A stretch of DNA of 64,000 nt from Prevotella sp. (GCA_023665755.1 JAMPDF010000001.1:344181-408180), one strand, 5' to 3'; shown: positions 3,950 to 62,369, counted from the first letter of the stretch. The notes: a model not told the origin generated them from the sequence alone. Translations and numbers: made by a program.

Positions 3950-4963
3950 TTATTCTTTTTTTGTCTGCGCAACCACTTGTTTCGCAACTTCTAAATCAAC
4001 TAAAATATTGAAGTCTACTTTACTATCTAATTCTTTTGCTTCAATCATAATATCTTGAAGACGATCAAAGCCTTTTTCTGAAAAAATTGGAGTTGTACAC
4101 CAAGCATTTATAGAACGATATCTCTTTACCACTTCAACCAAAATATCTAAATCTGTATCCATAAAGAAAGGTTGTACAGCTTTAGCAATCTCTTCATCGG
4201 TTGCCGTTCGAACAAACTGCTGTCCCTTATAAAGTGCTCTTGTAAATTTTTGAATCGTTTCTTGATTTTTATTAAAATAACTAATTGATGTTGAATAAGC
4301 TGTATATGTGATTTCTCCCGCATAATCGGCCACTGGTGCTAGTAAATGTGCTCTTTTTTCTTGAACAATTGCTGTTGCTGTTGGTTCAAATAATGTAACA
4401 AAATCCCCCTCACCGTCTAAAAACGATCCAGCAAGTGCCGCAAATGCTACGTCCGTTCTTACATTTACCTCTTTGGTCGCATCATCTTGACCAACATCTA
4501 GTCCAGCCTCTTTTAAGACATACTCTAGTGTCATTTCAGGAACTCCACCCTTTCTGCCACCTAAAATAGATTTTCCTTTCAGTTGATCTAAAGTGAAATT
4601 TTCAATCGGTTCTCTACCAAAAATAAAGCTACCATCTGTTCTAGTTAATTGGGCAAAATTAATTAGATAATCACTTTTATCCTTTTTATATAAATAAATA
4701 GTAGGTTCAGGACCTTGCAAACCAATTTGTGCATCGCCTGAAAGTAATGCTGCGGTTACTTTATCTGCACCATTTGCATTGATTAAATCAATCTTTAGTC
4801 CTTCCTCTTCAAAATAGCCATTGGTGATGGCTGCATATTGTGGTGCATAGAAAATGGATCTTGCTACTTCAACCACTTTGATTTTTTCCAATTTATCTTT
4901 CTTACACCCAAATAATAAGACGCTACTGGTTAATAATAATAGAAAACATAATATTTTTTTCAT
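3950..4963 (-). CDS. ABC transporter substrate-binding lipoprotein, NMT1/SsuA/ThiY-like (NitT/TauT family).
   Basis: Signal peptide plus lipobox LLFGC. The NMT1-like fold is suggested by the sequence. Its cognate permease and ATPase lie at 44880..46359, on the far side of the prophage. Confidence 0.7.
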   Translation of the reverse strand: MKKILCFLLLLTSSVLLFGCKKDKLEKIKVVEVARSIFYAPQYAAITNGYFEEEGLKIDLINANGADKVTAALLSGDAQIGLQGPEPTIYLYKKDKSDYLINFAQLTRTDGSFIFGREPIENFTLDQLKGKSILGGRKGGVPEMTLEYVLKEAGLDVGQDDATKEVNVRTDVAFAALAGSFLDGEGDFVTLFEPTATAIVQEKRAHLLAPVADYAGEITYTAYSTSISYFNKNQETIQKFTRALYKGQQFVRTATDEEIAKAVQPFFMDTDLDILVEVVKRYRSINAWCTTPIFSEKGFDRLQDIMIEAKELDSKVDFNILVDLEVAKQVVAQTKKE

Positions 4964-6347: not shown

Positions 6348-6847
6348 GCGATGCTATGTTATCTAATAGAGAGATAAATAGAATCACTTACCTAATTAAC
6401 GAATTATTGGCAGACTTTAGTTCAGGTTTGCCTTTAAATTCCAAAATAGTCATTATATATGACAAAAATGGCAACATCGAAGATTATGATATGCTAGATG
6501 ATGTTAATGATGATGGCGCAGACAATATTTTCTTTGATGAAGAGGATGTTCACCTTCCTTTTGTCGCTTATGAAGACGAAGAATACGAAGAAACAGATAG
6601 GAAAACAGCTCTTATTTATTTCTTGACCTGTATTCATCCTGATTTGCCATACAATGCCTGCGTTTTAAAGGCAATAAGGCTCATATTTGACCTTAGCCAA
6701 CAAGAAATGGCAAATAGATTAGGCATTGCAAAACAGTTCTATAATCAAATGGAAAACGGCACAAGACCTGTTTCAAAGAATGTAATAGAAAAAATTGCAA
6801 TGTTGGATAATTTTAGTGAAAAAGATTTCAAAAAAAAGGGCGAGTAG
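6341..6847 (+). CDS. Protein with an acidic N-terminal domain and a C-terminal XRE-family HTH domain.
   Basis: HTH signature LSQQEMANRLGIAKQFYNQMENGTRPVS near the C-terminus. Its start overlaps the upstream gene by 7 nt. Confidence 0.5.
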   Translation: MVGDAMLSNREINRITYLINELLADFSSGLPLNSKIVIIYDKNGNIEDYDMLDDVNDDGADNIFFDEEDVHLPFVAYEDEEYEETDRKTALIYFLTCIHPDLPYNACVLKAIRLIFDLSQQEMANRLGIAKQFYNQMENGTRPVSKNVIEKIAMLDNFSEKDFKKKGE

Positions 6848-6875
6848 TAATTCTACTCGCTTTTTATTTTTCCTA
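6838..6875. terminator. Bidirectional rho-independent terminator between convergent operons.
   Basis: GCGAGTAG..CTACTCGC hairpin flanked by an A-run and a T-run. Confidence 0.5.
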
Positions 6876-7734
6876 AAATAAACATTTTGTTGAAAAATTT
6901 GTTCAAAATGTTCTTCTTTTCCTTAAATGCACCAACTTTATATCGCATTATTATTTTTTCACCTTCATTATATCCAGTATAACAATTAACAGCTATTAAT
7001 AACGTTCTCCAAACTGTGTCATAAACTCCTTGCCATCCACCTTTTAACACTCCCAATCCAATTGATGCAAATAAGCAGGAAAACAAGACAGAAAAAGCAA
7101 TTTTAGAGGTAGAATCACGGGCTATAACTTTATTAGGCTCAAAGCTTCCTATTTCGTCTGTAAACGTCTTTTGACCAATGCTAAATGATCGTTCATCTAT
7201 TTTTAAGCACTTTACATTTTTAGTTGTTATATCAAAATCATTATTTGGCATCTCTACTACATTGTTTTTTTCTGGTATATTTAAATATTTGTAGTATTTG
7301 AGCCACTCGATACATTTGTCTTTTTCTTTAATTAGTTCATTTCTTTTGTTTTCTTCTTTCGCTTTTGAAATTTGAATATTTAATTTTTCAATATACGCAT
7401 CACATCGATAGATTAAATTTTCAATTTTAATCATATCATACAAATCATTTGTTAAAAATGTGTTATCAACTGTTCTAAAATCTGTTTTTACGTCATCTTC
7501 TAACGCTATTACTTCGTCTAATTTACTTGTAGCATTTCTCCCTACTGCAATGAAAGCAAAATAAGGAGTTAATGTCAGAACCTGTGTAGTTGCAATATTG
7601 CTCCAAAATGATGGATTTTTTAATGTGTCAAAAGAAAAATCTAATGTTATTAAAGATAATAGTATGTTGACAAATAATACTGCCAATATAACTAATCCAA
7701 TGATGAAATACAATGTTTTATCATTTTTGTTCAT
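6853..7734 (-). CDS. Membrane protein with an N-terminal TM helix and C-terminal TM helices.
   Basis: 293 aa. Hydrophobic segments at both ends. It is the last gene of the minus-strand block. Confidence 0.45.
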   Translation of the reverse strand: MNKNDKTLYFIIGLVILAVLFVNILLSLITLDFSFDTLKNPSFWSNIATTQVLTLTPYFAFIAVGRNATSKLDEVIALEDDVKTDFRTVDNTFLTNDLYDMIKIENLIYRCDAYIEKLNIQISKAKEENKRNELIKEKDKCIEWLKYYKYLNIPEKNNVVEMPNNDFDITTKNVKCLKIDERSFSIGQKTFTDEIGSFEPNKVIARDSTSKIAFSVLFSCLFASIGLGVLKGGWQGVYDTVWRTLLIAVNCYTGYNEGEKIIMRYKVGAFKEKKNILNKFFNKMFILGKIKSE

Positions 7735-8297
7735 TCTTCCATTTCCTCTCTTTCTTTGCGAAGTTCATCCCTTCTTCTTTGGATATCTTCGATTTTTCTT
7801 GCCTCTTTGTCAATTTCTAAATCATATAAATATTTGCGATTGATTGCAGCATCTACAATTTGCAGACATAAACCCATACAAATGCTGAATATAATTAACC
7901 AGATATGTTTTGCAATATCAAGCTTTGGCATTTTATTCAATAGATCCTGGATCAATTGAACGAATGCAGCAAGAATAGTAACGGGTATAAGTGAAACAAT
8001 TCCCCCAATAAATGTTTTAAATGGGCTAGGTTTTAAATCTAAAATCTTTTTTTTCAAGTGTTTAGCCAAAAAAACTAAATAAATTAATCCTGCGATGCAC
8101 CATGTGATAGATAGCGTTTCTTTTGCAGTCATTTCAATTTTTTTTAAAACGAATAAATTTTCTGCAATCAAACCCATAGGAAAGAAATAGAGGAATATAA
8201 AACCTGAAAAATAAAGTATTCGCCTTGAAATATGCGTTTTAAGACTACTTAACTCGTTTAATTTCTTTCTTTTCATCTTCTTTTGCCTCTTGTTCAA
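7731..8297 (-). CDS. Polytopic membrane protein (about 4 TM helices) with a charged coiled-coil C-terminus.
   Basis: 188 aa. Its stop overlaps the downstream gene start. The tail is rich in E/R/K. Confidence 0.45.
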   Translation of the reverse strand: MNKRQKKMKRKKLNELSSLKTHISRRILYFSGFIFLYFFPMGLIAENLFVLKKIEMTAKETLSITWCIAGLIYLVFLAKHLKKKILDLKPSPFKTFIGGIVSLIPVTILAAFVQLIQDLLNKMPKLDIAKHIWLIIFSICMGLCLQIVDAAINRKYLYDLEIDKEARKIEDIQRRRDELRKEREEMEE

Positions 8298-8745
8298 CGA
8301 TTATAGCGTTTGAATCAGGTAATTGCTGAGTTTCATTGTTTTCAATTGCTGTGAGAGCGTCTTTTGTATCTTCTTTTATCTTTAGGATATCTTCTACTAA
8401 CAATTTAGCAGATGCTTGTAAATTTGAATTATTAAAAGCGATGGTTAAAGCTTCATTTTGCTTTTTTGCGATTTCTACTGATTGTTCTAGTGCTTTTGCC
8501 ATTTTAAGATATTCTTTTTTCAACTCATCTACAGTGTTTTCTGCATTTACCACATATTTATCATACATATTTTTAATCTCTTTAATTTCTGCACTTTTCT
8601 TATCTAATTTAATTGTCAGTTTTGTTTTGGCTACTTTATCTATTACTTTTGAAAAAATAAAATAAAGAACAGAACCAACTAATCCTATGTTTAATACTCC
8701 GCTACTTTTTACAAATTCTAATACTTGATTTAATATTTCTTGCAT
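8245..8745 (-). CDS. Single-pass membrane protein with a long coiled-coil.
   Basis: TM segment near the N-terminus (IGLVGSVLYFIFS). The remainder is K/E-rich and helical. Confidence 0.4.
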   Translation of the reverse strand: MQEILNQVLEFVKSSGVLNIGLVGSVLYFIFSKVIDKVAKTKLTIKLDKKSAEIKEIKNMYDKYVVNAENTVDELKKEYLKMAKALEQSVEIAKKQNEALTIAFNNSNLQASAKLLVEDILKIKEDTKDALTAIENNETQQLPDSNAIIVEQEAKEDEKKEIKRVK

Positions 8746-8758
8746 ATTTTACCTCCTC

Positions 8759-9070
8759 TTATGCTAAAAATCTTTTGCTATCAATATATTCAGCTAATTT
8801 GATAACTGTATTTTTTAAATTTTCTACTTCTTTTTGCAATTTTTCGTTTTCTTCTTGTAATTTTTGAATTTGATTGCCTAATGTTGTTTCTTGATATGGT
8901 ATATCTTCTAATTTTTCAAAAACAAACTCTTTATCTTGCGCATCAACACACAAAAATACGCTATTATTTATTGCTTTCTGTTCTGCATTTAATATGCTCA
9001 TCTTTGTACTTTCTTCAAATCGTTTTTTATATTTCATATTTTTCTCCTTATAAAAACACAGGTCTTTCAA
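8759..9070 (-). CDS. Small coiled-coil protein.
   Basis: 103 aa with a heptad-rich C-terminus. Confidence 0.4.
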   Translation of the reverse strand: MKDLCFYKEKNMKYKKRFEESTKMSILNAEQKAINNSVFLCVDAQDKEFVFEKLEDIPYQETTLGNQIQKLQEENEKLQKEVENLKNTVIKLAEYIDSKRFLA

Positions 9071-9077
9071 CCTGTGC

Positions 9078-9446
9078 CTATTCTACTTTCCAAACCAAAT
9101 CTATTATTTCATTTCTACAGTCCCAAATATCATACAGAGTTCCATCGATGCCACAAGTAAGGTGACCTTCTACACGTATGATGTAGATACCTTTAGGATT
9201 TTGGTTTAAAAATTCTTCAATTGTAAAGCCATGATAGCTTTCTATTCGCACCAACTTAAATACTTCATCTAGTAAATGCTTATAACAGCATACGCATAAC
9301 TCTTCGCACTCAAATAATTCGCCAATTAGTTCTAATTTGTGTTTAGTATCGTAATAATCAAGCCCTACACCAAGTGATATCGCCCTGCAAACACAGTCTT
9401 CTTCTCTTTTCCCAAGTGGTTGAAGATTCAAGAATTTGTAACGCAT
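9078..9446 (-). CDS. Cys-rich hypothetical protein.
   Basis: 122 aa. CVC..CVCC cluster. Stop/start overlap with the upstream gene. Confidence 0.4.
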   Translation of the reverse strand: MRYKFLNLQPLGKREEDCVCRAISLGVGLDYYDTKHKLELIGELFECEELCVCCYKHLLDEVFKLVRIESYHGFTIEEFLNQNPKGIYIIRVEGHLTCGIDGTLYDIWDCRNEIIDLVWKVE

Positions 9447-10177
9447 TATTCTTCTTGGCTTTCCCCTTTGATGATTTCATAGAAATAAATGCATAGCTTT
9501 TCGCTAGGTGATACTTTTATATCGTCATCTTCAAAGAATTGTTTAGCCATTTTAATATAAGTATGTGGATCGTTAGCAATATTCTTGTGAATACTAATCA
9601 TCATTAAATAGACAAAGTAGAACTCATCTTCGCTAAATTCTTCAAATTTGACACCCGTTTCTTCTGCTTTTTTGACAACCATTTGCTTTGAAAGATGAAA
9701 GATATCTTTTGACTTTAATTTTTCAGCAAATTCTTTTAGCTCTTGCTTGTATTCTTCTTCCCCATCTTTGTAATCACTTGAATACTGATCATAATTGCCG
9801 TCATATGCTCTATCATATCCTCTATAATCTTCATATCTATGTGGTGAATTAATCATGCCATATACTTCATATTGCATAGGTCTTGGATAGTCTCGATATT
9901 GTTCCATATGACGACCATCGTTCCCACCATAATTGGCATTGTCACGACCATCATATCGACTATCATATCTTGAATTATTTGCTCTGTAATCCATTTCTTC
10001 CATAGCACGGTCTCTCCCACTTCTTGAAGAAACATATCCACCTCTTGAGCCATACGGATTTCTTCCATCTTGGCTATATCTTCTGTCTCCGCCTCTTTGG
10101 TCTCGTCCATCCATAGAACGATCACGACGACCTCTTCTGCGATCGATTCTGTCTCTTAAATATCTGTTGTTAGCCAT
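9446..10177 (-). CDS. Protein with an Arg/Asp/Tyr/Gly-rich, intrinsically disordered N-terminal half and a C-terminal folded domain.
   Basis: 243 aa. RRGRRDRSMDGRDQRGGDRRY... low complexity. The nested ORF at 9853..10125 is an artefact of the repetitive DNA. Confidence 0.5.
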   Translation of the reverse strand: MANNRYLRDRIDRRRGRRDRSMDGRDQRGGDRRYSQDGRNPYGSRGGYVSSRSGRDRAMEEMDYRANNSRYDSRYDGRDNANYGGNDGRHMEQYRDYPRPMQYEVYGMINSPHRYEDYRGYDRAYDGNYDQYSSDYKDGEEEYKQELKEFAEKLKSKDIFHLSKQMVVKKAEETGVKFEEFSEDEFYFVYLMMISIHKNIANDPHTYIKMAKQFFEDDDIKVSPSEKLCIYFYEIIKGESQEE

Positions 10178-10179
10178 AA

Positions 10180-10620
10180 TTACACGACTTTCTCAACGTT
10201 TACGACAACGTTGTTGATAATTGAGCCTACACCAGGATTTAAAACAGTAATTGTTTTAGCTAAAGTAGAATCTGTGCCTAAAATACAAGTATTATCTACC
10301 AAGAAATAATAATCGATTGTTAAATTTCTAATTTCTGTTGTTGCAGTTGTGATAGTTTCTGTTGCTAATGCTCCTGGAATGATCACTCCGTTTTCAGCTA
10401 ACTGTAATGTCACATCACCTGCTGCAGTACCTGAGACATTAGCATTTAATGTCAAATGGTAAATTCCTTTATGATTTAGTGATATGCTATTGCCATTAAA
10501 CGCAAATGCGGTAACTCCGCAATTTTTTCTACAGAATTTGCGGTAAACTGCTCCCAAATTTACAATACCATCAGTCACAACAGTTTGACTAGCGGTATTT
10601 TTTACCCCCAATAATAACAT
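10180..10620 (-). CDS. BclA C-terminal-domain-like (TNF/C1q-like) protein with no collagen-like region.
   Basis: AFAFNGNSISL...LTLNANVSGTAAGDVTLQLAENGVIIPG...VVVNVEKVV aligns block by block with the B. anthracis BclA C-terminal domain (YAFNSGGISL...ITVIANTATASVLGGLTIQVNGVPVPG...SIIIEKVA). Confidence 0.5.
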   Translation of the reverse strand: MLLLGVKNTASQTVVTDGIVNLGAVYRKFCRKNCGVTAFAFNGNSISLNHKGIYHLTLNANVSGTAAGDVTLQLAENGVIIPGALATETITTATTEIRNLTIDYYFLVDNTCILGTDSTLAKTITVLNPGVGSIINNVVVNVEKVV

Positions 10621-10700
10621 TTTTTTGTCTCCTTTTTTTAAAAAATAAAGAGCATAGAATTAACTATGCCCTTATAGGATAATTAATCCTTTTCTCTCCA

Positions 10701-11507
10701 TTATTGAATTGATGCGCAACCGCAATTTCCACTATAACCTACACCTGTTGGATTGCCGTAGCAACAATTTGGATTAGGTACTACATAAGCTGGAATTGGG
10801 CAATCTCTGCCAAGTCTGCGAATGAGTTCTGCAGTTTGAGCTTCTTGATTAGCTGCAAAGTATGCGTTTTGAGCTTGTTGTGATGCTGCTAAATTTAATG
10901 CATTTACTTGTTGAGTTAATTCTGCAATACGTTCGTTCTTAGCTTCAATCTTATTTGCTACTAATTCTTCGTGTAATGCACGATAATTTGCATTTTGATT
11001 TTCAATTAAATCACGTGTATTCATGTTCATTGTGTTTTGCAATGCACATGTAGATTGAGCGATGTTATAGTTTACGCCATCTATTGCACGTTGAGTTTGG
11101 CAGCAACAATCTTGTAAACGATATCCTAAATCAGTAATTGCACTACGTGTTTCATAACCATTTTGCATGATTGCTGTATTTACACCACTAAATCCTTGAC
11201 AAAGTGTTTGTTGAATACCTGCTTGACCTAATTTTAAGTCATTTAGTGAACCTAAAACAGCACTGTTGTTAAATCCTGAAGCTACATCTGCTTGTGTTGC
11301 CATTTTTCCTAGTTCATAACCTACAAATTCGGAGCTACCTCCGCCATTTCCTGTTCCAAAACCATTTCCGTTTCTTCCCCAGCCAAAAAGTAAAGCAATC
11401 AAAATGATTCCCCACCATCCATCTGCAAATCCATTCATACCACCGTTATTGCCATTACTGCCACCAGTATTGATGACTTGTGGCATATCAGTTTCGTAAT
11501 AAGCCAT
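10701..11507 (-). CDS. Single-pass membrane protein flanked by Gly/Asn-rich segments, with a coiled-coil and a Cys-cluster C-terminus.
   Basis: 268 aa. TM WWGIILIALLFGW. GNGGG repeats. CCC and CC..C..C motifs. Confidence 0.45.
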   Translation of the reverse strand: MAYYETDMPQVINTGGSNGNNGGMNGFADGWWGIILIALLFGWGRNGNGFGTGNGGGSSEFVGYELGKMATQADVASGFNNSAVLGSLNDLKLGQAGIQQTLCQGFSGVNTAIMQNGYETRSAITDLGYRLQDCCCQTQRAIDGVNYNIAQSTCALQNTMNMNTRDLIENQNANYRALHEELVANKIEAKNERIAELTQQVNALNLAASQQAQNAYFAANQEAQTAELIRRLGRDCPIPAYVVPNPNCCYGNPTGVGYSGNCGCASIQ

Positions 11508-11565
11508 TAGAATTTTTTCCCCCTGTTAAAATTAATTTTAAAATATATTAATTCTGCATGTCGAC

Positions 11566-11859
11566 CTACAGATTAATACCTGATTGATTGAACATGTACA
11601 TCAAGGGATTTAAATTAATGCTATTTTGTTTGGCGTATTGTTGAACAAATTGTTGTGGGCTCATACCGCTTTGTTGCATTTGATTTTGAGCTTGTTTCAT
11701 TTTTTCAAGAGCAACTCGAATTTGTGGATTATTTGCTGCCATTTGTTGCAATTGTTGCATTATTTGATTAGGATTTAAGCCTTGTCTCATCATTTGTTGA
11801 ATCATCATCATTAGATTATTGTTCATTTTTGACCTCGCTAACTTGTCCTGTTTGACCAA
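11566..11859 (-). CDS. Gln/Met-rich low-complexity protein.
   Basis: 97 aa. Its start overlaps the upstream gene. Confidence 0.35.
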   Translation of the reverse strand: MVKQDKLARSKMNNNLMMMIQQMMRQGLNPNQIMQQLQQMAANNPQIRVALEKMKQAQNQMQQSGMSPQQFVQQYAKQNSINLNPLMYMFNQSGINL

Positions 11860-12241
11860 TTAAGGCAAATAATTTGTTAATTTCACCTTTAATAATGTCT
11901 AAATCTGATTTTCTTGCGTAATCGTCTTCTTGATTCATCTTTACAAGCTTGAAATGCTCAATTGAATACATACAGTTTGCATCTGCTCTTTTAATAAACA
12001 TCATATCGCTGTTTCTATCTTTGAGAAAAAATGTTTGATTTGCGCCAACAATATATGCTTTCGCATCTTCGATACCATTTACCATGTCAAAACCTATCTT
12101 TGGTTGTTGTTGTGCTTGATTTTGTTGTTGATAGTTTACGTTTTGTTGGTAATTTTGCTGATAATTTGGTTGGTAGTTTGGATAACCACCATAGAAATTA
12201 TAATTTGGTTGCATGTACTGATCCCCCTTGTACAAATGCAA
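11816..12241 (-). CDS. Protein with a Q/N/Y-rich prion-like N-terminus and a folded C-terminal domain.
   Basis: 141 aa. YQPNYQQNYQQNVNYQQQNQAQQQP. Confidence 0.4.
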   Translation of the reverse strand: MHLYKGDQYMQPNYNFYGGYPNYQPNYQQNYQQNVNYQQQNQAQQQPKIGFDMVNGIEDAKAYIVGANQTFFLKDRNSDMMFIKRADANCMYSIEHFKLVKMNQEDDYARKSDLDIIKGEINKLFALIGQTGQVSEVKNEQ

Positions 12242-12287
12242 TTATAACTTTTTATTTTTTCTTCACAATTTCATATTTGTGTCAATT

Positions 12288-12509
12288 TTATTTCGTTTTC
12301 ATTGCACAAATAAATTTCTTTATTCTTCTAATTACAGTACTAGTCGATATTCCTAGTATTTCTGCTGTAGCTTCAAATGTGTTTCTGGTACTTAAAAAGA
12401 CTGTATCCGCAATTTGATACAGTCCATTCTTGATACATATTTCTTCGATATATTCCTCATCAATTCGTCCATCTAAAATACGTAGTACTTCTTCACGAAG
12501 TCTTGGCAT
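12288..12509 (-). CDS. Small sigma-70 region-4-like HTH DNA-binding protein. It may regulate the downstream cargo block.
   Basis: 73 aa. TAEILGISTSTVIRRIKK is an HTH typical of sigma region 4 and ArpU-like regulators. Confidence 0.45.
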   Translation of the reverse strand: MPRLREEVLRILDGRIDEEYIEEICIKNGLYQIADTVFLSTRNTFEATAEILGISTSTVIRRIKKFICAMKTK

Positions 12510-12518
12510 TTTACCCTC

Positions 12519-15236
12519 CTAAAATTTCAAAATTTCCATATTTGTTAAAGTTGGAGCAAGTTCTTCTCCAATTTCTGTATTATCTACCATTTTGATGAAA
12601 TACAACTCTAATTCACTACTATTAACATTATGTTTAAAATGACCATATCCATCATTTGCCGTTCCAATCATACTAAATGTTGATGATATAATAGCAGAAG
12701 TTGAATCTACATCAAAATCGACAAAATATCTTTCATTGTTAATAGCAAATTTAAATCTATATCTTTCACCAATTTTAAATGTCCCACCATCACCGTCAAA
12801 AATAACGTATCTTTCTGTTCCTACAGTAGGAATAATATTAGTTGAAATTAAATTGGAACTTTGTTTTAATGGTGATAAATCTACAGATGTATGCCCAGCA
12901 GTTGGATTGTCACTATTTCCTATCACGATTTCTAAAGTTTCATTTATTAATTGAGCTTGCAAAGTTGATGCTAATACATTACCGCTTTCTAAGGGTATTT
13001 CCAAAATATCAAATTTGCCCAATGCTGGAATTATAGTATAAGTATATATCCCACTACCTGTGCTTGGAACATACATCAATGTTCCCATTATCATTCCTTC
13101 TCCATTGCTAGTATGAGCAAATAATGCTGTCGTAGATAATCCATCTTGTAATATAGTTGCTTTATAAATGCCACTTTGTTTAGATAGCATTATTTGAATA
13201 ATTTCTTCAATGTCTGAAAATATGCCTAAATCTTCAACTACACCTTTTAAAGAAATAGCATCTAATTCTTCTTGCGTTGCGATATCTACAGTTGTTTTTA
13301 CCCATGTTCCATCTGCAAGGTTGACTTCAATTTTGTATACGATATTGCCTTTAAAATTGCCAAATGTTCTCGTTCCTGCGGTTTCTCCTAAAATAGTATA
13401 GGCATCGTTTGAGCCTTCAGTATTGGCTTGATAAATGATTGTATTTGGATCATTTTGCAAATTAGTTAAATCATTGCCTGTAAATGTGCCATATGTTTCT
13501 GTTGTTGAAATATAGACAGTAGGTACGGTATATCCACCACCCGTTGAATCCATATATTCCTTTAATCCTTTAGATGTAATTGCTTTGTAGTCGTCAGTTC
13601 CTTCAATAATATCATCGTTTGTCGCAATTCTATTCTTTATTGTACTTGACGTTATATCAAAATATCTCCCATCAAATGATGTCGTATCTGAATTATACTC
13701 ACCTTCTCTAGTAATTGCTGCAGTTGTTTTGTCTACACCCATTTGATAATCACTATAGCCCAATCTCAGTTCCGTTCCATTACTCGTACTAACTGTTTTT
13801 TTAACCCATTTTTTAAAAATTATAACATATTTTGTCGAAAGAGAACTTAAGCCATCATATTCATAACCTTTAAATTTAATTTTATAAGCTTGATTCTTTT
13901 GACATAATTCTAATATTTTATTTTTATTACTAAATGCATCATTAATACTATTTAAATAAATGCCATCATTTTCTTCAATTTTAGCAGATAAATTCGCCAT
14001 TTCTTCTGTTATTGTGTTTTCAAGCCTTGTAAATGCATCATTTATGCTTGATTTTTCGCCATTTCCAGTAGCATAGTTCTTTGCAGTGTCAGCAATAATT
14101 GTTCCATTCAGTATCATTTCTTGAAAATTAGCAAAAGTAACAGTTGAGACATACTTGTCAGTGTCAGTTTCTCGCCAAATGCCTTGTCCGCTCTCATCTA
14201 TGCCACTTTCATCCCAAATATACATGATTAACCACGTTCCTATGTTTACGAATGCATAATCGCCTGGATTTGCTGTAGGATATGTGCTTGTTAACTCATC
14301 ATATGACAAGAAATCACCTTTATAGTGGTTTTCGCCACCACCTCCACCACCAAGAATTGATTTTAAACTTTGCAAAGTCACTCGATATGCCTTGTTTCCA
14401 CTATTGATAATGAAATAATCACTATCCGCAACTTCATTCGCAATTGCAATATCGTTAAATACCTCATTTAATTTAATACTACGCAATTCTTCTATTGAAT
14501 TTGAGTTTAAATTAATTTGCCTTTGTGCGTTTTGACTAGATTCATCTGTGTAATCTTTTGCAATTTGTGCATTTTCAGCAATTTGTTGTTTCAATTGTTC
14601 ATCTTTGGCTTGTAAAACAGTTATCTTACTGTTTGCCCCTTGAATTGACGTGTCAATGCTATCTAATTTTGCGGAAACAAGTGTTTTATTTACTGTAGAA
14701 ATAGGTACTTGGTCTGCTCTTACTCGATGTGGATTTTCAAAGTCCTGTCTATGACGATTTATATCGCTTTGTGCTTTTTCTACCACATCTAGGGCTTGTT
14801 GGTAAAATTCTTCTTCCGTCGTTGTTTCCAAATTTGGCTTAACATTCCGTCTTACGTACAAACATGTCACTGCAGTAGCATATACTTCGTTGGTTTCAGT
14901 ATTCTTTACCTCAAACGATACTTGCAATTGTCCTGATATATCCAAAATACGGTCTTCTTGCTTGAAACCATACTGATAAACGACTGTAGGAAATTCTACA
15001 TCTGCTCCACTAGCTGGATCCAAAGTTTCGATATAGTCCATTTGGCGATTGCTGATTACAAATCCATCTGATCGTTCAAATGATACCTGCACAATAGACG
15101 ATTCTACACTATACGGAACTAAAAGTTGTATAAAATCGACATTTGAACGTCCTGTAACAAGAAATGTGGTGTCTTCTTGCTTTAAAATCAAGCCATTTTC
15201 GTTTAAATATATCTTTGCTATATTCTCTGTTTTCAT
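12519..15236 (-). CDS. Large virion protein, probably a tail fibre or receptor-binding protein.
   Basis: 905 aa. Central coiled-coil and a GGGGG linker. Position after the tail genes. Beta-rich C-terminal part. Confidence 0.45.
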   Translation of the reverse strand: MKTENIAKIYLNENGLILKQEDTTFLVTGRSNVDFIQLLVPYSVESSIVQVSFERSDGFVISNRQMDYIETLDPASGADVEFPTVVYQYGFKQEDRILDISGQLQVSFEVKNTETNEVYATAVTCLYVRRNVKPNLETTTEEEFYQQALDVVEKAQSDINRHRQDFENPHRVRADQVPISTVNKTLVSAKLDSIDTSIQGANSKITVLQAKDEQLKQQIAENAQIAKDYTDESSQNAQRQINLNSNSIEELRSIKLNEVFNDIAIANEVADSDYFIINSGNKAYRVTLQSLKSILGGGGGGENHYKGDFLSYDELTSTYPTANPGDYAFVNIGTWLIMYIWDESGIDESGQGIWRETDTDKYVSTVTFANFQEMILNGTIIADTAKNYATGNGEKSSINDAFTRLENTITEEMANLSAKIEENDGIYLNSINDAFSNKNKILELCQKNQAYKIKFKGYEYDGLSSLSTKYVIIFKKWVKKTVSTSNGTELRLGYSDYQMGVDKTTAAITREGEYNSDTTSFDGRYFDITSSTIKNRIATNDDIIEGTDDYKAITSKGLKEYMDSTGGGYTVPTVYISTTETYGTFTGNDLTNLQNDPNTIIYQANTEGSNDAYTILGETAGTRTFGNFKGNIVYKIEVNLADGTWVKTTVDIATQEELDAISLKGVVEDLGIFSDIEEIIQIMLSKQSGIYKATILQDGLSTTALFAHTSNGEGMIMGTLMYVPSTGSGIYTYTIIPALGKFDILEIPLESGNVLASTLQAQLINETLEIVIGNSDNPTAGHTSVDLSPLKQSSNLISTNIIPTVGTERYVIFDGDGGTFKIGERYRFKFAINNERYFVDFDVDSTSAIISSTFSMIGTANDGYGHFKHNVNSSELELYFIKMVDNTEIGEELAPTLTNMEILKF

Positions 15237-15266
15237 TTTTGCTCCTTTCTATCAAAAAAGAGCCGA

Positions 15267-17684
15267 TTATTTCGACTCTTCATATGGATTAATTCCTACT
15301 ACACCATCTCGCATTGGTGTGCCGTCTTCTGATGAAACATAAATTTTGAACGATGATAAGATATTCTGCATCTCGTAATAATTCTTGATCATAATTGCTT
15401 TATCATTTAGCAGCAAAACAATGCTCTTATATTCCGCATCAACGCTTTCAAAATCAACTGAAATAGATTGTGTGTTGCTATCATAGTTTGAAACCCTCAC
15501 AGAGGCTATTTCTGCCTTATATTCGCTAGGTAAAGCGTCATATCGACCAATATTAGTGTCAAATAAACGAATCGAATATGTGGGATTTTCAGCCCCATTT
15601 AAAAGATATTCCACATAGTCTTCACGAACAATTGTGTTACCTATACCTCTATAGTTCACTTGGAAGGTAAAACTGAATATTTCGTACGGGTCTTTTGCAG
15701 GATATTCACGTATGACATAATTTGCCACACTTAAATCATCTTTCATAAGCCTTACAAAAGCTTCATTTATCTTTCCTTTTCTGTCTGTATAGTTTCTTGG
15801 AATCACATTTCCTTGATTGTCTACATATTCATCCCATATTACATTGCTTTCTGCCTGTTCATTAAAGATAATGCTTGTACCAACTCTTGAAATAATTGGA
15901 TCACCATACAATAAGTACTGTTCTGTTCCAGCGTTAAAATCATTTGCAATGCGATATGTTAATTTACTATTTAAATCTATCAAATTTTCAATGTTAATAC
16001 TAGCATTATTCACTAATGCTCGATTATCTATCATTGAAAAGCCTATTTTTGCGTAATCTAATTTAATTTTTTCTACTAAATCCTCATTTGGTATGCTATT
16101 TATTTGTAAATCTGTGTTTGCTTCGATATATTCACGACGTCTTGCACGTTCTTCTGTCAATTGTGCATCAATAACTAAGTAATGTGCATTTTCTTGAACA
16201 GTAATGCTATTAAGAACATACCTTTTTTGTCCATCTTTGATAATTGATCCTGGCATAGGTATTTTATCCCAAGAATCTGTAGTTCCGCTTTTCATCAATG
16301 ATGCACTTTGCATATTGTCGATATACGTTTGTAGCACTCTTGATATTCTATCTGGGTCAACTTGTTGTGCATTTTGGTTAAAATACGCTATATCATCGTA
16401 TTTGCTATTATTTGATGATATGAGAGGGATAGATTTTGTTATAATGCCTCTATAATATGCTTTATAGAGAACATTTTTTAAATTTATTTTATATCCATAA
16501 TCTCCAAAATATCCTCTTAATATATTGAACGAATTATCATCGTCTAATTGTACGCTTTTTGCTAATCTTATTTCACCATCATTATTTAATATTCTATCAA
16601 ATAATTTATCTAATTGATTTAAGTATATTAAATTATTATTATAATAAATATAAATAATATTTTTATTTTCCTTTTCTTCAATAGTTAAATTTTCGTATTC
16701 TTCACTTTTTATTATTCTAATCCTTTTAGTTTGTTTTAAAAATTCTCCACTTCGATAACTTCTATAATAAATTATATCGGTGTTATCTTCAAAAATCCAT
16801 GGAATATTATAATCTATTTCTAATGGCTCCTTTTGATAAAAATATCCATATAAATATATTTTTTTTAACGATGTTATCGAATTATTCATTTTTAATCCAA
16901 TATTTTCTTTATTTATTTCAAATGTATTATCTGTAGTTGCTGGCTTTTTTCCGTTTTCATATGGTTCAAGAATATTACTATTAAGTCTTAAATTTTTAAC
17001 TTCACAATAGACGTTTTTAGCAAGACCTTCTCCTGTTTCATCTCTTAGGTCAACAGGATTGTCAAATACAGAAACATTATATTCTATACCATTTAATCCA
17101 TCTAATCGTTTAAACTTTAAAACCCATTTCTTGCTTTCCTCATTAAAGTCAAGATATGGCTGACAATCTATTGTTCTTGCTATCTCATACATAGTTAAAT
17201 ATGTAGTTGTTGATACAAAAGTAAGTTTTGGATTATTATATTCAATATTTGGAATTAATATTTCCGCATCAAAATTTGCAATATCAAATAGCCTGCGTAT
17301 TATTTCAAATAATGTGTAAGAATTTTCTGCTAAAGCATTTGATTCTATCTTAAATCCCCTTAAAATTTCAGTTGGTTCAATTAAAGTTAGTGTATTTATG
17401 TTTTCACTTTCTTGTGTCCAAATATTTGGATGCGCCATTTTAGATGATTTTGAATTTTTTACAATCCAATAATTGATTTTGTCACCATTTTCAGTTTTAA
17501 TCGCAGTATCAACGGGGATATGAAAATCTGTTGGTGCGAAAAAACTAAATTCTGCACAATTTTGTGCTTGATCAATACCTAAAGTATAAGTTTGAGGAAA
17601 AGTTTGTGTTATTTTTCTGTCCTCACTCTCTTTCGGTATTTCTACCCATTCTTTTTTGTCATTCAAATAATAAATTTTTGACAT
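15267..17684 (-). CDS. Large tail-associated structural protein.
   Basis: 805 aa. RBS AAAGGAGAAAAA. N/Y/I-rich low-complexity middle. Position between the small tail proteins and the fibre. Confidence 0.4.
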   Translation of the reverse strand: MSKIYYLNDKKEWVEIPKESEDRKITQTFPQTYTLGIDQAQNCAEFSFFAPTDFHIPVDTAIKTENGDKINYWIVKNSKSSKMAHPNIWTQESENINTLTLIEPTEILRGFKIESNALAENSYTLFEIIRRLFDIANFDAEILIPNIEYNNPKLTFVSTTTYLTMYEIARTIDCQPYLDFNEESKKWVLKFKRLDGLNGIEYNVSVFDNPVDLRDETGEGLAKNVYCEVKNLRLNSNILEPYENGKKPATTDNTFEINKENIGLKMNNSITSLKKIYLYGYFYQKEPLEIDYNIPWIFEDNTDIIYYRSYRSGEFLKQTKRIRIIKSEEYENLTIEEKENKNIIYIYYNNNLIYLNQLDKLFDRILNNDGEIRLAKSVQLDDDNSFNILRGYFGDYGYKINLKNVLYKAYYRGIITKSIPLISSNNSKYDDIAYFNQNAQQVDPDRISRVLQTYIDNMQSASLMKSGTTDSWDKIPMPGSIIKDGQKRYVLNSITVQENAHYLVIDAQLTEERARRREYIEANTDLQINSIPNEDLVEKIKLDYAKIGFSMIDNRALVNNASINIENLIDLNSKLTYRIANDFNAGTEQYLLYGDPIISRVGTSIIFNEQAESNVIWDEYVDNQGNVIPRNYTDRKGKINEAFVRLMKDDLSVANYVIREYPAKDPYEIFSFTFQVNYRGIGNTIVREDYVEYLLNGAENPTYSIRLFDTNIGRYDALPSEYKAEIASVRVSNYDSNTQSISVDFESVDAEYKSIVLLLNDKAIMIKNYYEMQNILSSFKIYVSSEDGTPMRDGVVGINPYEESK

Positions 17685-17747
17685 TTTTTCTCCTTTATCT
17701 TGATTTTATTGTTATTTTACAATATAATAAATATGAGGTGTTTCATA

Positions 17748-17972
17748 ATGAAAGAAAAATTTTTAAAATCTATACATACTTTATTATTAATTATTGTTAT
17801 AAATATTATAATGATTATATTTATTGATATTTTAAGTAATTTTGAATCAATAAAATTACTTTGTACAAACATTAATCACTACCTATTTATTATTTTAGGA
17901 ATCACTTTTATTGTTTTAATTTTAAAAATATTAAAACATTTAGATAAATTACTTTATGATAATTGGCAATAA
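17748..17972 (+). CDS. Small two-TM membrane protein encoded opposite to the structural module.
   Basis: 74 aa. A strong terminator follows. Confidence 0.35.
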   Translation: MKEKFLKSIHTLLLIIVINIIMIIFIDILSNFESIKLLCTNINHYLFIILGITFIVLILKILKHLDKLLYDNWQ

Positions 17973-17984
17973 ACTACGAAAATA

Positions 17985-18016
17985 TTTTAAATCTCTTAAC
18001 AACTCGCAATGAGTTG
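17985..18016 (+). terminator. Rho-independent terminator.
   Basis: AACAACTC-GCAAT-GAGTTGTT hairpin followed by a TTTTTTATTTT run. Confidence 0.55.
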
Positions 18017-18020
18017 TTTT

Positions 18021-18467
18021 TTATTTTGTCTTGTAAAACCTATTCCCCAGCCAATCAGTAGTGACAGTTGTTTCACCACTACCCAAGAATAATCTACCAC
18101 TCTTGATTTGGTTATACTTAATTTGATTGTTGACTTGAGCTTCTTGTTTTAGCTCATTTATTTTCTTGATAGCCTCGCTTGATAACTCAAGTGCAAGTGC
18201 AGCAATTGCAGTAAAATCAAACGTAAATGAACGTGCCACAAGTGAGCCATATTTCATTACATCCCCAATTCCTTTGGATAGTTGCGTATTTCCACTTGCT
18301 GCAATCAGTTTCTGCCCTGCTTGAACAAAAAACGTAGCACTAATGCCACGTCCTGTTGCTTCTCCCTTACTTATTGATGATTGTTGCTTTGCTCCGTTTT
18401 GAGGAGTTCCACTTGCCTGAGCGTTGAATTCGATGGTGACTGGTATTCTAATTTCATTTTGAGCCAT
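18021..18467 (-). CDS. Virion or tail protein (hypothetical).
   Basis: 148 aa in the structural gene array. Start/stop coupled to its neighbours. Confidence 0.35.
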   Translation of the reverse strand: MAQNEIRIPVTIEFNAQASGTPQNGAKQQSSISKGEATGRGISATFFVQAGQKLIAASGNTQLSKGIGDVMKYGSLVARSFTFDFTAIAALALELSSEAIKKINELKQEAQVNNQIKYNQIKSGRLFLGSGETTVTTDWLGNRFYKTK

Positions 18468-19240
18468 TAGTCTACTCCTTGCAATGTAATCGTAACTATA
18501 GGAATGCCTTGATTTTCATTTAAGACAATTAAAGAAAAAACAACGTTCTTTTCAATATCGCCATCTTTAAAAATACAGACCTTGCCATCTAATACTTCTG
18601 TATCTTTGTTGCTCATAACGAAATTGCAGAATGTAGTGTTTGTTCTAAGTATTGGTATGGTGATAGTATTGTTTTTACTGTCAAAATTCGCTTTGCCCTT
18701 TTGGATAGAAGGAGATAATGTGTAATTGTAGGATACGGAATCTTGGAAATTCTGTATTCCCTCGATTTCCATTTCTAAATCGTCAATGATCATCTTCTTT
18801 TTAGTTGGTTGAATGGGCATATTAGAGTAGAATGCATTAGCAATTAATGTTCCATAACTCACATATACCGTTTCAGTGCCTAAATCTTCCTTTGTATTAG
18901 TAGATACACTTGGTGTATTTAATCCTAGTTGAAACATGTACTGCATATCATCAGTTTGTAAATACACACCATTGACTGCGTTAACGTAGTCATTTAATTT
19001 GCTTAATACGTCTTGCAAAACATTTGTCTCACATTTAAAGTTAATGATTACGCTTAAATTGGTTGCGACAATGCCTTCCACACGTGAGGGAATGCCCTGC
19101 CCTGTCTTGATGCAGAAGACTACATCGTTTTTCTTAAATTGATTGTGATTAATGTCATTACTAACAATGACATTATACCCATCTAATACTTCTTTTAAAT
19201 TTTCTTTTAAAATTTTCTTTAAGCTTTGTTCAAATAACAT
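18467..19240 (-). CDS. Putative tail protein, possibly major tail or tube.
   Basis: 257 aa. Position after the head-tail joining genes. Confidence 0.3.
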   Translation of the reverse strand: MLFEQSLKKILKENLKEVLDGYNVIVSNDINHNQFKKNDVVFCIKTGQGIPSRVEGIVATNLSVIINFKCETNVLQDVLSKLNDYVNAVNGVYLQTDDMQYMFQLGLNTPSVSTNTKEDLGTETVYVSYGTLIANAFYSNMPIQPTKKKMIIDDLEMEIEGIQNFQDSVSYNYTLSPSIQKGKANFDSKNNTITIPILRTNTTFCNFVMSNKDTEVLDGKVCIFKDGDIEKNVVFSLIVLNENQGIPIVTITLQGVD

Positions 19241-19619
19241 AATTGATTTCTCCTCTCATTCCGTTTTCAATCGTATATGTAGCAAGCGAATCTAAATATC
19301 CTTGATATTCCATAATTTCATCTTCTGTATATTTGTCTTGGAAGATACCAATTAACACAGGCTTAACTGATTCGATTGCATCTTGTACCCAGTATAAATT
19401 TGGATTTTTTGCGCCTTTCCATTTGGGGCTAATCCACTCCTCATTGGTATATGGGGCATATGGTGCTACCTCACCGCCTATTACCACTTGCCAAATGCCA
19501 TCTTCAAAAACTGAACGAATTGCATTCATAGATAAATTACGTGTGTCTTTTGGGCAATAGATTCTGCAAGCTGTTTCTAGAATATTTGTCGCAAGCTCTG
19601 TTTTTAGCAGTAAATTCAT
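19230..19619 (-). CDS. Head-tail joining protein (hypothetical).
   Basis: 129 aa. Position in the array. Confidence 0.3.
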   Translation of the reverse strand: MNLLLKTELATNILETACRIYCPKDTRNLSMNAIRSVFEDGIWQVVIGGEVAPYAPYTNEEWISPKWKGAKNPNLYWVQDAIESVKPVLIGIFQDKYTEDEIMEYQGYLDSLATYTIENGMRGEINYVI

Positions 19620-27417: not shown

Positions 27418-27811
27418 CTATTTTTCTCGCCATCAAAGCTTCAAGAGTAGCATTGTGTGTAGGATTTTCTTTTATTTCTGCATCTATTTCTACTTTGTTT
27501 GGATTCTCTCCTACTAAATTCGTTAAATATTCAGCAGCTCTTGTATCGCCATTTGTCGCCTTAATCAATTGCCCTACAAGCATTGCCATTTGATTGTTCA
27601 TATCTTTCGCTTTTATTCCCATTTTCTCGAGTTTAGCAATTACTTTAGGATCTTTAACTTTAAGAGATAATAAAGCATCAGCAGCTTCTGCCATAGCTTT
27701 TCTTTTCCTTTTCGCCTTGCCACTTGCAATGCCACCATTGCGACCTCTCTCTCTTGCTTCTTCCGTGGTTCTTATGAGCTTTAAATTGTTAATATTTCCC
27801 TTATTAGGCAT
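27398..27811 (-). CDS. Putative terminase small subunit.
   Basis: 137 aa basic protein (RGRNGGIASGKAKRKRK) immediately upstream of TerL. Confidence 0.45.
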   Translation of the reverse strand: MPNKGNINNLKLIRTTEEARERGRNGGIASGKAKRKRKAMAEAADALLSLKVKDPKVIAKLEKMGIKAKDMNNQMAMLVGQLIKATNGDTRAAEYLTNLVGENPNKVEIDAEIKENPTHNATLEALMARKIDGIDDE

Positions 27812-43116: not shown

Positions 43117-43317
43117 ATGTTAAAGGAGGCGAATTTAAAAAGTATCAATGGTATTGTTGTTAAAATAGACAATACTTTTTACATCGTTTACGACGAAAAA
43201 CTTAGTGATGGCGAAAAAGAAAAACTAATTAATTGTCTACAAACTCATATCAAACTAAACAGGTTTGATTTCAAACTCATTGGCAATGAAATCATTGAAA
43301 GTGAGGTAATAAAATGA
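43117..43317 (+). CDS. Small protein between the repressor and the integrase.
   Basis: 66 aa. RBS GGAGGGGG. It overlaps the integrase start. Confidence 0.35.
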   Translation: MLKEANLKSINGIVVKIDNTFYIVYDEKLSDGEKEKLINCLQTHIKLNRFDFKLIGNEIIESEVIK

Positions 43318-46359: not shown

Positions 46360-46509
46360 TATCCTCGCCTCTTTCAAGTACACTTTATCATATTCATTAA
46401 ATTCTATTTCGTGTGGGCAAAAAAACCCTGTTCATTTTAGAACAGGGTGATGATATATTTTTTCATTTTTCAATATGAATAGGTCTTACAATATACGATT
46501 AATTATCTA

Positions 46510-62131: not shown

Positions 62132-62369
62132 ATACATACCTCCCAATTGATGTTACCATTATACGCTAGTTTTTATTTTTTTCCTAATCATCTATTGGTT
62201 CTTTTTCTTGTTCATAGCCAATTCTTTTTTCAATATTTTTACTTGATGCTACTTCATTTTTGATATACCAAGGAAGTACATTGCTCATATTTGACAAAGA
62301 AAAAAGAATAGAAAGTTTTTGTATTTTTTCATCATTTTGGCAAAGAATAAAAGTAAAGGATGTGAAAAT

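Follow-up and report, generated by a model that had tools for sequence, protein, structure and literature searches.

The window analysed here is a 64,000-nucleotide stretch of a genome assembly labelled Prevotella sp. (GCA_023665755.1, JAMPDF010000001.1:344181-408180). It contains a prophage, and within it seven closely packed open reading frames (ORFs) on the minus strand, at positions 9078-12509, belong to an accessory gene module, mobile and self-contained, copies of which occur in thousands of tailed phages; one protein (here p268) is its universal core, and the partner slots are interchangeable. As to what the module does, we tentatively favor an auxiliary role related to fibers or their terminal knobs, dispensable to the phage and expressed from a promoter of its own. 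An initial annotation, made from the sequence alone, had recognized a co-directional block of ORFs of unusual composition and had put forward spore-surface cargo as its lead hypothesis, with an unusual fiber or decoration module, the option closest to our own, and a non-canonical lysis system as alternatives. All of its coordinates were confirmed, and the seven ORFs are present with the compositions it described; the cargo proposal was not borne out, as the cassette or its core is found in phages of non-sporulating hosts and in phages known only from the lytic cycle. The seven genes, in the order in which they are read, are:

p73, 12288-12509, minus strand: small helix-turn-helix (HTH) protein of 73 aa by its sequence, first gene of the block
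p141, 11816-12241 as listed, 11816-12214 from the likely ATG, minus strand: Gln/Asn/Tyr/Pro-rich N-terminal low-complexity region, small conserved domain, C-terminal helix
p97, 11566-11859 as listed, 11566-11826 from the likely ATG, minus strand: small Gln/Met-rich helical protein
p268, 10701-11507, minus strand: signature gene of the module, phrog_16490
p146, 10180-10620, minus strand: stand-alone jelly roll of TNF/C1q type by structure model, BclA-C-like
p243, 9446-10177, minus strand: Arg/Asp/Tyr-rich disordered N-terminal half and C-terminal helical domain, divergent copy of the DUF7841 family
p122, 9078-9446, minus strand: small Cys-rich protein (8 Cys), loosely attached member of the module

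The module is seen most directly in its gene order. We retrieved 80 loci from IMG/VR with p268, added Dulem virus 35 and searched the six-frame ORFs of these 81 loci iteratively with hidden Markov models (HMMs). The order p141-p97-p268-(p146 or c6)-(p243 or another Arg/Asp/Tyr-rich protein)-p122 is near-constant across them, which bears out the discrete co-directional module that had been proposed. Besides p268 itself, present in all 81, the searches found p141 in 74 loci, directly 5' of the p97-p268 pair, p97 in 68, between p141 and p268, and p122 in 28, sometimes upstream of p141. The slot after p268 holds a member of the p146 family in 35 loci and an unrelated Cys-rich family of ~135 aa (c6) in about 20, and the slot after that holds the p243 family in 45 loci, or else other Arg/Asp/Tyr-rich helical proteins (c8, c108). 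With each of p141, p97, p268, p146 and p243 recovered in 35-81 of the 81 loci, these are not chance ORFs. A comparison of gene neighborhoods had been suggested at the outset, and what it returned, the same cassette across many phages with non-sporulating hosts among them, speaks against spore cargo.

Existing resources hold the parts and not the whole. Single-protein families were available for p268 (phrog_16490), p141 (phrog_21718), p122 (phrog_3754) and the p243 family (DUF7841), all of them without a function, and their linkage into one module is not recorded there. Comparison of the block proteins with Pfam, PHROGs and NCBIfam gave no functional name beyond HTH and a weak BclA_C match, while megablast of 6800-15300 and tblastn of p146 against phage records returned nothing. 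Literature searches on phage BclA, exosporium or spore surface glycoprotein, on DUF7841, on phrog_16490 and on C3_41T2LP likewise found nothing relevant, and the module-level picture, its breadth across host phyla, the domain fusion described below and the promoter and hairpin architecture appear to be undescribed.

Among GTDB genomes, 57 loci were found, nearly all in metagenome-assembled genomes of gut Clostridia, a distribution that, taken by itself, would still be compatible with a link to spores. The carriers, however, extend well beyond these. Butyrivibrio is non-sporulating, and HMM searches of Butyrivibrio phage Ceridwen recovered the full cassette (p122-p141-small ORF-p268-p146 family-...-c8) directly after the endolysin gene. 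For Ceridwen, a siphovirus in culture on B. fibrisolvens, lytic growth was the only growth observed (PMC7372960). The crAss-like phages carry DUF7841 proteins, and in cr125_1 one of these, with an Arg/Asp/Tyr-rich tail, adjoins a p268 homolog that is annotated as 'spike protein/glycoprotein' and contains GGWWWIWIILLFFCWGGNGFGFGG, SCCCD and CPVPAY...NP; the pair lies just after an endolysin, a holin and a LysB-like gene. In the same region of cr125_1 (L140, 3968-6552), the genes neighboring DUF7841, the p268 homolog included, contain in-frame TAG codons, consistent with stop-codon recoding. A search with this p268 homolog reached many crAss-like genomes, the cultured Bacteroides phage C3_41T2LP and predicted viruses of Methanomassiliicoccales.

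A third group of carriers infects enterobacteria. Protein gp08 of Edwardsiella phage eiAU is a member of the p268 family (E 2e-11), and a search with it returned 132 records, mostly enterobacterial, among them T1-like Drexlerviridae, Seuratvirus, Sashavirus-type Salmonella phages and Yersinia phage PY100. Aligned with hhalign, the enterobacterial set matches the p268 alignment with 98.9% probability (E 3.5e-17, ~194 columns). Here the p268 homolog heads a four-gene set of ~220, 110-120, 165 and 85 aa, which follows the lateral tail fiber gene in the T1-like phage PaulSarasin and in eiAU, where it comes after the tail-fiber and fiber-chaperone genes. Only p268 is common to the enterobacterial set, and p268 with DUF7841 to the crAss-like phages. 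Phage T1 itself, searched over its whole genome, has no homolog of the module and no match at E<=1. Given that T1 does without the module and other Drexlerviridae carry it, the module is, as far as these genomes can tell, dispensable. In T1 (L149, 32632-34881), a bidirectional terminator comes directly after the tail-fiber gene ST26, at the very point where the module lies in other Drexlerviridae. A role specific to spores cannot be squared with the host range read from these sequences, which takes in phages of Butyrivibrio, Bacteroides, Edwardsiella, Yersinia, Escherichia and Salmonella as well as crAss-like phages and predicted archaeal viruses.

The core protein, p268, matches phrog_16490 with an E value of 1.8e-60 over residues 16-265 and has at least 8000 homologs; by single-sequence phmmer (E<=1e-3) the family comprises 1248 clusters at 50% identity. 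From the N-terminus on, the protein consists of an acidic, Gly-rich stretch, a hydrophobic segment like a Gly zipper, an extended helical part that contains a CCC motif, and a tail rich in Pro, Cys, Gly and Tyr. Gly makes up 13% and Asn 12% of the protein, which has 10 Cys, with DCCC at 133-136 and NCC...GNCGC at the C-terminus, and its single hydrophobic stretch is WWGIILIALLFGW; the earlier description of a single-pass protein with Gly/Asn-rich sequence and a Cys-rich C-terminus thus holds for the composition. Across 50 sequences C134-C136, D166, L204 and P246 are invariant and CPxPAYVVPNPNCC is nearly so. In the same set, the hydrophobic 17-mer is membrane-like (median Kyte-Doolittle value 1.83), with 75 Asp/Glu against 17 Lys/Arg in its N-terminal flank and 16 Lys/Arg against 7 Asp/Glu in its C-terminal flank, a bias that predicts an N-out/C-in orientation with the bulk of the protein in the cytoplasm. 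The AlphaFold2 (AF2) model is poor (predicted local distance difference test, pLDDT, 43.6), with helices predicted at 32-41, 73-115 and 121-234.

The protein that had suggested a link to spores is p146, said to align with the TNF-like C-terminal domain of BclA. On the level of sequence this did not hold up well, as the match to Pfam BclA_C (PF18573) reaches only 17.8 bits (cut-off 38; E 0.003) and covers residues 41-95 only, and a profile of 41 family members compared with PDB sequences places BclA and ExsFA at the top with E values of 0.2-0.5. The fold did hold up. Structure prediction of 10180..10620 against the BclA_C/TNF fold had been proposed beforehand, and the AF2 model (pLDDT 88.8, predicted TM-score 0.83) matched BclA-C in the PDB with Foldseek (3twi and 1wck, E 1e-8, TM 0.70-0.75), followed by ExsFA/BxpB and F-BclA, the exosporium set spanning E values of ~1e-8 to 1e-6, and then by the TNF-family protein EDA and by C1q; the leading entries are 3twi, 3tyj, 1wck, 2z5w, 7r1m and 8d02 (E 1e-8 to 1e-7). 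The modeling thus confirms p146 as a TNF/C1q-type jelly roll of the BclA-C class, presumably trimeric. The spore proposal gains from the fact that, among solved structures, exosporium proteins (BclA-C, ExsFA/BxpB, F-BclA) match p146 best, and from the Tyr-, Cys-, Arg- and Gln-rich low-complexity compositions in the block, which resemble those of coat proteins.

Several features of p146 nevertheless count against that proposal. Compared with BclA-C and ExsFA (1wck, 3twi, 7r1m, 8d02), it has the same fold class (TM 0.65-0.75 over ~140 aligned residues) but only 13-20% identity, and it differs in that its gene belongs to a phage cassette whose carriers include phages of non-sporulating hosts. Its first modeled strand begins at residue 2, with no GXX collagen repeats, and there is neither a collagen stalk nor an N-terminal extension that could hold an exosporium-targeting motif. 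Its 336 homologs are 145-158 aa long, and a precomputed PF18573 match is present in one of the 120 listed. One homolog's database record does read 'spore surface glycoprotein', a name that would speak for spores, but this is an automatic label and not an experiment. Against viral structures (BFVD), the nearest matches are stand-alone gut-virome proteins of 130-153 aa (E 4e-14 to 1e-10, TM ~0.8), and the next are C-terminal knobs of collagen-repeat proteins from uncultured Caudovirales and C1q-like proteins of giant viruses. As the nearest viral structures are stand-alone virome proteins and phage fiber knobs, the BclA-like fold is, on these models, not specific to spores; it is common in phage fiber knobs and giant-virus proteins. 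Some of the stand-alone gut-phage matches have been automatically named 'BclA protein'. These ORFs and the collagen-repeat knobs, the best viral matches of p146, share with it a phage late-region context, whereas the knobs are covalently joined to a collagen stalk and p146 is stalk-less.

The other members are less readily placed. The likely start of p141 is the ATG at 12214, preceded by an AGGGGG ribosome-binding site on our reading of the sequence, giving a protein of 132 aa, and that of p97 is the ATG at 11826 (86 aa). Both had been described as Q/N/M-rich, and their compositions agree: p141 has 13% Gln, 11% Asn and 9% Tyr (residues 10-47 include 13 Gln, 8 Asn and 7 Tyr in 38), and p97 has 22% Gln, 14% Met and 13% Asn. 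The p141 family matches phrog_21718 (E 7e-13), with K75 invariant and V45 and G81 nearly invariant in its alignment; it gave no Pfam match, and its profile found nothing significant among PDB sequences. For p97 there was no family assignment in Pfam, PHROGs or NCBIfam. The Arg/Asp/Tyr-rich N-terminal half reported for p243 is real (28 Arg, 19 Asp and 18 Tyr in the N-terminal 135 residues). Among the proteins recruited by p243 with jackhmmer, 25 of 29 match Pfam DUF7841 (PF25223; best E 2e-31), while the window's own p243 has no Pfam match at E<=0.1, and its membership in DUF7841 is one of transitive homology only; the family profile found nothing significant among PDB sequences. Finally, p122 matches phrog_3754 (E 1.5e-16) and belongs to a family with at least 7115 small phage relatives, with homologs also in Bacillus phages (Tsamsa, Izhevsk) and Geobacillus phages. 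Over 22 diverse sequences N7, D17, C18, H95, D106 and W119 are invariant, and the Asn...Asp-Cys...His...Asp succession has the order of papain-like catalytic residues; neither Pfam nor, for the family profile, PDB sequences gave a match, which leaves p122 with no known peptidase family.

The cassette also appears to have its own regulation, as had been supposed for a block opened by a small HTH gene. The start of p73 lies 9 nt past the stop of the upstream 905 aa gene. The protein had been described as a sigma-region-4-like HTH protein; the HTH stands, with sigma region 4 as only one of many sub-threshold HTH matches: HTH_Tnp_ISL3 (the best, E 4e-5, 23.3 bits against 27.4), HTH_8, SpoIIID (0.08), Sigma70_r4 (E 0.017, 15.1 bits against a threshold of 24.1) and the C-terminal region of SigF in NCBIfam (E 0.001). 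By sequence p73 is present only in the close relatives L002-L005, and small HTH genes of region-4/LuxR-like type precede the cassette in many unrelated phages, in keeping with a regulator at its head. Three candidate elements were located in the window:

12241-12268, minus strand: promoter-like site TTGTGA-16 nt-TATAAT between p73 and p141, 10 of 12 consensus positions
11535-11564, minus strand: promoter-like site TCGACA-18 nt-TAAAAT just 5' of p268, 10 of 12 consensus positions, a consensus match only
10648-10673, minus strand: terminator-like hairpin with T-run (terminator scan), directly after p268 and inside the cassette

Promoter-like sites in the region are not above chance (26 found, 31.7 expected), and the window's own upstream region has only the TTGTGA-16 nt-TATAAT site. 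Across related loci, the extended -10 motif TGnGATAAT occurs in 16 of 49 upstream regions where 1.3 would be expected, 11 of the 16 at -30 to -34, and 32 of the 49 have phased direct repeats upstream in at least three copies, with up to five copies of TGCACA. In L039, L044, L015, L036, L063 and others, three to five repeats (TGCACA, AGTGAT etc.) spaced ~10-11 nt apart lie 30-130 nt 5' of the p141 homolog. In many loci the repeat arrays and the extended -10 are preceded by a terminator and the small HTH gene, and the combination looks like an activator-dependent promoter. These upstream elements resemble extended -10 sites of sigmaA type with activator repeats, which is a further point against expression during sporulation; no sigmaE- or sigmaK-type motif was obvious upstream in the related loci, judged by eye and without a statistical test, and a sigmaH-like reading of the motif was rejected as its spacing does not fit. 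A hairpin comparable to the window's comes after the p268 homolog in 36 of 57 non-redundant loci (2 in shuffled controls), and since it stands directly after p268 it suggests that this protein is made in excess over the products of the downstream genes. Because of the HTH gene, the phased repeats, the extended -10 and the hairpin, we regard the cassette as a separately controlled unit, on the strength of predicted signals.

The genomic position of the cassette is usually the 3' end of late operons, after endolysin or fiber genes. Across 49 non-redundant loci, the domains encoded most often in the 3 kb 5' of the cassette are of endolysin type (PG_binding_1 10, ELLD 3, Amidase_2 3, M23 3, GH25 2, NlpC/P60 2, Amidase_3 1) and fiber-type domains come second (Collagen 5, LRR_5 2, Gp37 2, Gp10_C 2, Collar, S74). 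In Clostridia phages it mostly follows GH25+LysM, ELLD+PG_binding_1+SH3, M23, amidases and Phage_holin_4_1 and often precedes an opposite-strand integrase or repressor gene. The p268 gene lies directly after lateral tail-fiber genes in eiAU, PaulSarasin and KurtStettler; in the window it comes after the 905 aa gene. In the Seuratvirus KurtStettler, moreover, the p268-like region is fused to the C-terminal side of a fiber-like segment and a Peptidase_S74 domain (residues 208-259, E 1e-14), in a gene labeled 'putative lateral tail fiber chaperone' by the depositors of the BASEL collection, the series of Escherichia phages to which PaulSarasin and KurtStettler belong. The 510 aa product (bas22_0024, L145, 3981-5513) begins with a coiled-coil and beta-rich segment, followed by the S74 domain and a complete p268-like region with Gly-zipper, CCC and a PTPPTPPTSCC tail. 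None of the window proteins has a Peptidase_S74 domain, which is joined to p268 only in this fusion.

It is on these grounds that we lean, short of even confidence, toward a fiber- or knob-related module: in several lineages without relation to one another it follows directly on fiber genes, Seuratvirus has it fused to a chaperone domain of fiber type, the fold of p146 is that of a knob, and the hairpin within the cassette points to p268 being expressed at a relatively high level. We postulate that the module makes an auxiliary fiber- or knob-type assembly during lytic development. In such a scheme p268, made in excess by virtue of the hairpin 3' of its gene, would be seated in the membrane or in a homo-oligomer through its Gly-zipper segment, and its long, Cys-clamped helical rod would serve as an anchor or trimerization platform for the stalk-less TNF-like trimer of p146, by analogy with the fiber-type intramolecular chaperones that nucleate trimeric fibers. 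The Met/Gln-rich p97 would probably shield the hydrophobic segment of p268, and the low-complexity proteins p141 and p243 together with the Cys-His-Asp protein p122 may act as auxiliary factors. The module as a whole would be dispensable, modulating phage fitness or host interaction and building neither the core virion nor a spore. The likeness to Peptidase_S74 chaperones and fiber assembly proteins lies in the position of the p268 family downstream of lateral tail-fiber genes and in the KurtStettler fusion; unlike them, the window's p268 is without S74 and has low-complexity partners, the module lies in some genomes far from fiber genes, and the hydrophobic anchor, CCC motif and Cys-rich tail of p268 are not known in fiber chaperones.

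A number of observations weigh against this reading. The enterobacterial partners of p268 show no relation to the clostridial p97, p141, p146, c6, c8 or p243 (hhalign probabilities all <=3%), and the knob slot itself is filled by unrelated families, hhalign revealing no relation between c6 and p146. Nor is the position always next to fibers: ORF29-32 of PY100 form an isolated operon among early-type genes, away from the fiber genes, the cassette of Dulem virus 35 sits inside the head module (between head-morphogenesis and capsid genes), and in the L018 contig group it follows DNA polymerase and recombination genes, as it does replication and recombination genes in C3_41T2LP. The anchor of p268 with its acidic N-terminal flank fits a protein of the cytoplasmic membrane better than one of the virion, its structure model is unreliable and its trimerization is an assumption. 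The function given to every member is drawn from context, one domain fusion and one fold. Other conceivable roles are those of p122 as a Tgl-like transglutaminase that would cross-link the Gln-rich p141 and p97, after the pattern of Tgl and GerQ in B. subtilis, of p97 as a Met/Gln-rich holdase of STI1/SGTA type, of the Cys or Met residues in binding metal, and of a membrane organizer of replication resembling phi29 p16.7.

An alternative that we consider unlikely, though well short of negligible, is that the cassette is a lysis or egress accessory, or a non-canonical lysis system, with p268 acting at the cytoplasmic membrane together with or after the holin and its partners modulating the timing of lysis or the disruption of the envelope; in the window's prophage, the cassette and the four membrane and coiled-coil proteins encoded downstream would then replace holin and endolysin, with p122 as a candidate wall peptidase, a role in line with the labels 'endopeptidase' and 'putative peptidase' given to its family by the sources. 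The initial annotation had remarked on the missing holin and endolysin, and rightly so: searches of 6800-19300, with its 805 and 905 aa proteins, against Pfam, PHROGs and PDB sequences recognized neither, and the close relative MH552499 (L148) likewise has none that can be recognized, an absence that fits such a replacement. Roughly every second Clostridia-phage locus has an endolysin gene directly 5' of the cassette, in some cases together with a holin gene, and the placement of the cassette after the endolysin in Ceridwen and after the endolysin, holin and LysB-like genes in cr125_1 points the same way. Yet carriers of the module usually have canonical holin and endolysin genes as well (related phages have separate Phage_holin_4_1 or r1t-type holins upstream of the cassette), complete lysis cassettes lie apart from the module in eiAU, the T1-like phages and PY100, and T1 lyses normally without it. 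The module's hosts are Gram-positive, Gram-negative and predicted archaeal; envelopes as different as these call for different lysis accessories, yet the module is conserved across them.

The comparison with known lysis proteins is similarly divided. In its architecture of anchor, coiled coil and Cys, p268 resembles i-spanins (lambda Rz, P2 LysB), with which it shares an N-terminal hydrophobic segment, a long helical region, conserved Cys and a frequent location near endolysin and holin genes. Its charge bias, N-out/C-in, is however the opposite of an i-spanin's, the cassette has no lipoprotein-type ORF that could be the o-spanin partner, and the family extends to predicted archaeal viruses and to phages whose hosts are Gram-positive, while in enterobacterial phages it is found alongside separate spanin genes. 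Judged as a holin, p268 has 268 aa, one hydrophobic segment and a soluble part of ~220 aa, and it matches no holin family in Pfam or PHROGs.

Comparably improbable, in our estimate, is a role at the inner face of the membrane in superinfection exclusion, counter-defense or host takeover, with the cassette as a moron-like unit under its own regulator. The HTH gene, the promoter-like elements and the terminators agree with this, as does the predicted topology, which puts the bulk of p268 in the cytoplasm. The genomic positions vary, the presence is patchy within families (absent from T1, present in other Drexlerviridae), partner families are swapped between lineages in the manner typical of arms-race accessory genes, and in temperate Clostridia phages the cassette has the lysis genes on one side and integrase or repressor genes on the other. 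On the other side, the motifs of p268 are strongly conserved across phages of different phyla, which suggests a conserved phage-internal partner rather than a host-specific target, and some phages that carry the cassette are known from lytic growth alone. Stop-codon recoding is linked to late genes, and the in-frame TAG codons of the crAss-like copy suggest late expression, a further point against such a role. Lysogenic-conversion cargo was rejected as a general reading for the same reason, the presence of the cassette in phages seen only in the lytic cycle.

That the prophage encodes a set of spore-coat or exosporium-like proteins, expressed in sporulation under the small regulator and remodeling the surface of the host spore, is to us highly improbable and, as a general function, largely refuted, even though most carriers are phages of gut Clostridia and the window's host carries a gene with a GerAB-type Spore_permease domain (62319-63368, 34 bits against a cut-off of 23). 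This gene does make plausible the earlier supposition of a spore-forming host. The spoVS homolog named alongside it had no match in the window, in what was a weak test (tblastn with one SpoVS sequence as query).

The prophage spans ~4964-44880, with a serine recombinase gene at 43314-44750. Its structural operon (terminase, portal, minor capsid 2, scaffold, major capsid), in which no tape-measure gene was found, ends with the unannotated genes of 805 and 905 aa. The block had been placed downstream of the tail fiber; the position after the 905 aa gene is correct, and the identity of that gene as a fiber is by position only, without a family match. Below the block, the operon is completed by:

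p103, p166, p188 and p293, 6853-9070, minus strand: four lineage-specific genes
6835-6865: bidirectional terminator, end of the operon

By prediction, p103 is a coiled coil, p166 has an N-terminal hydrophobic segment and a coiled coil, and p188 and p293 are multi-pass membrane proteins. All four are present only in L002-L005 and MH552499, and general library searches, Pfam and PHROGs included, gave no family match. The prophage is apparently inserted in an ABC-transporter operon, with an NMT1-type substrate-binding gene on the left (3950-4963) and a BPD_transp_1 permease and an ATPase on the right (44880-46383), next to the serine recombinase of the phage. Just 5' of the terminase region, the phage gene at 27811-28938 encodes a fusion of a ParB N-terminal domain with a domain of N6/N4 DNA methylase type.

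The block fails as a candidate for remodeling of the spore surface by a phage, and it carries a caution: labels such as 'BclA-like' or 'spore surface glycoprotein' on phage ORFs are not evidence for sporulation cargo. The members of the module have so far been annotated only as 'hypothetical', 'spike protein/glycoprotein', 'outer capsid protein/viral fiber', 'putative sugar-binding protein' and 'spore surface glycoprotein', and these scattered labels turn out to belong to one syntenic, separately promoted cassette that reaches from gut Clostridia phages to crAss-like phages, coliphage groups and predicted archaeal viruses. A bolder proposal, which we hold with more doubt than the fiber- or knob-related role, is that the p268 cassette is a near-universal accessory apparatus of tailed viruses, an anchored, Cys-clamped helical platform that takes interchangeable knob-type and low-complexity partners to form an auxiliary structure. 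If this were true, phages of Bacillota, Bacteroidota (crAss-like phages included) and Pseudomonadota (T1-like, Seuratvirus, eiAU, PY100) and predicted viruses of methanogens would have in common an apparatus whose mechanism is independent of the type of envelope; we know of no described counterpart, and the BASEL coliphages would allow its direct dissection. Given that homologs are present in culturable, genetically tractable phages (PaulSarasin, KurtStettler, eiAU, PY100, Ceridwen), a large block of gut-virome dark matter becomes directly testable.

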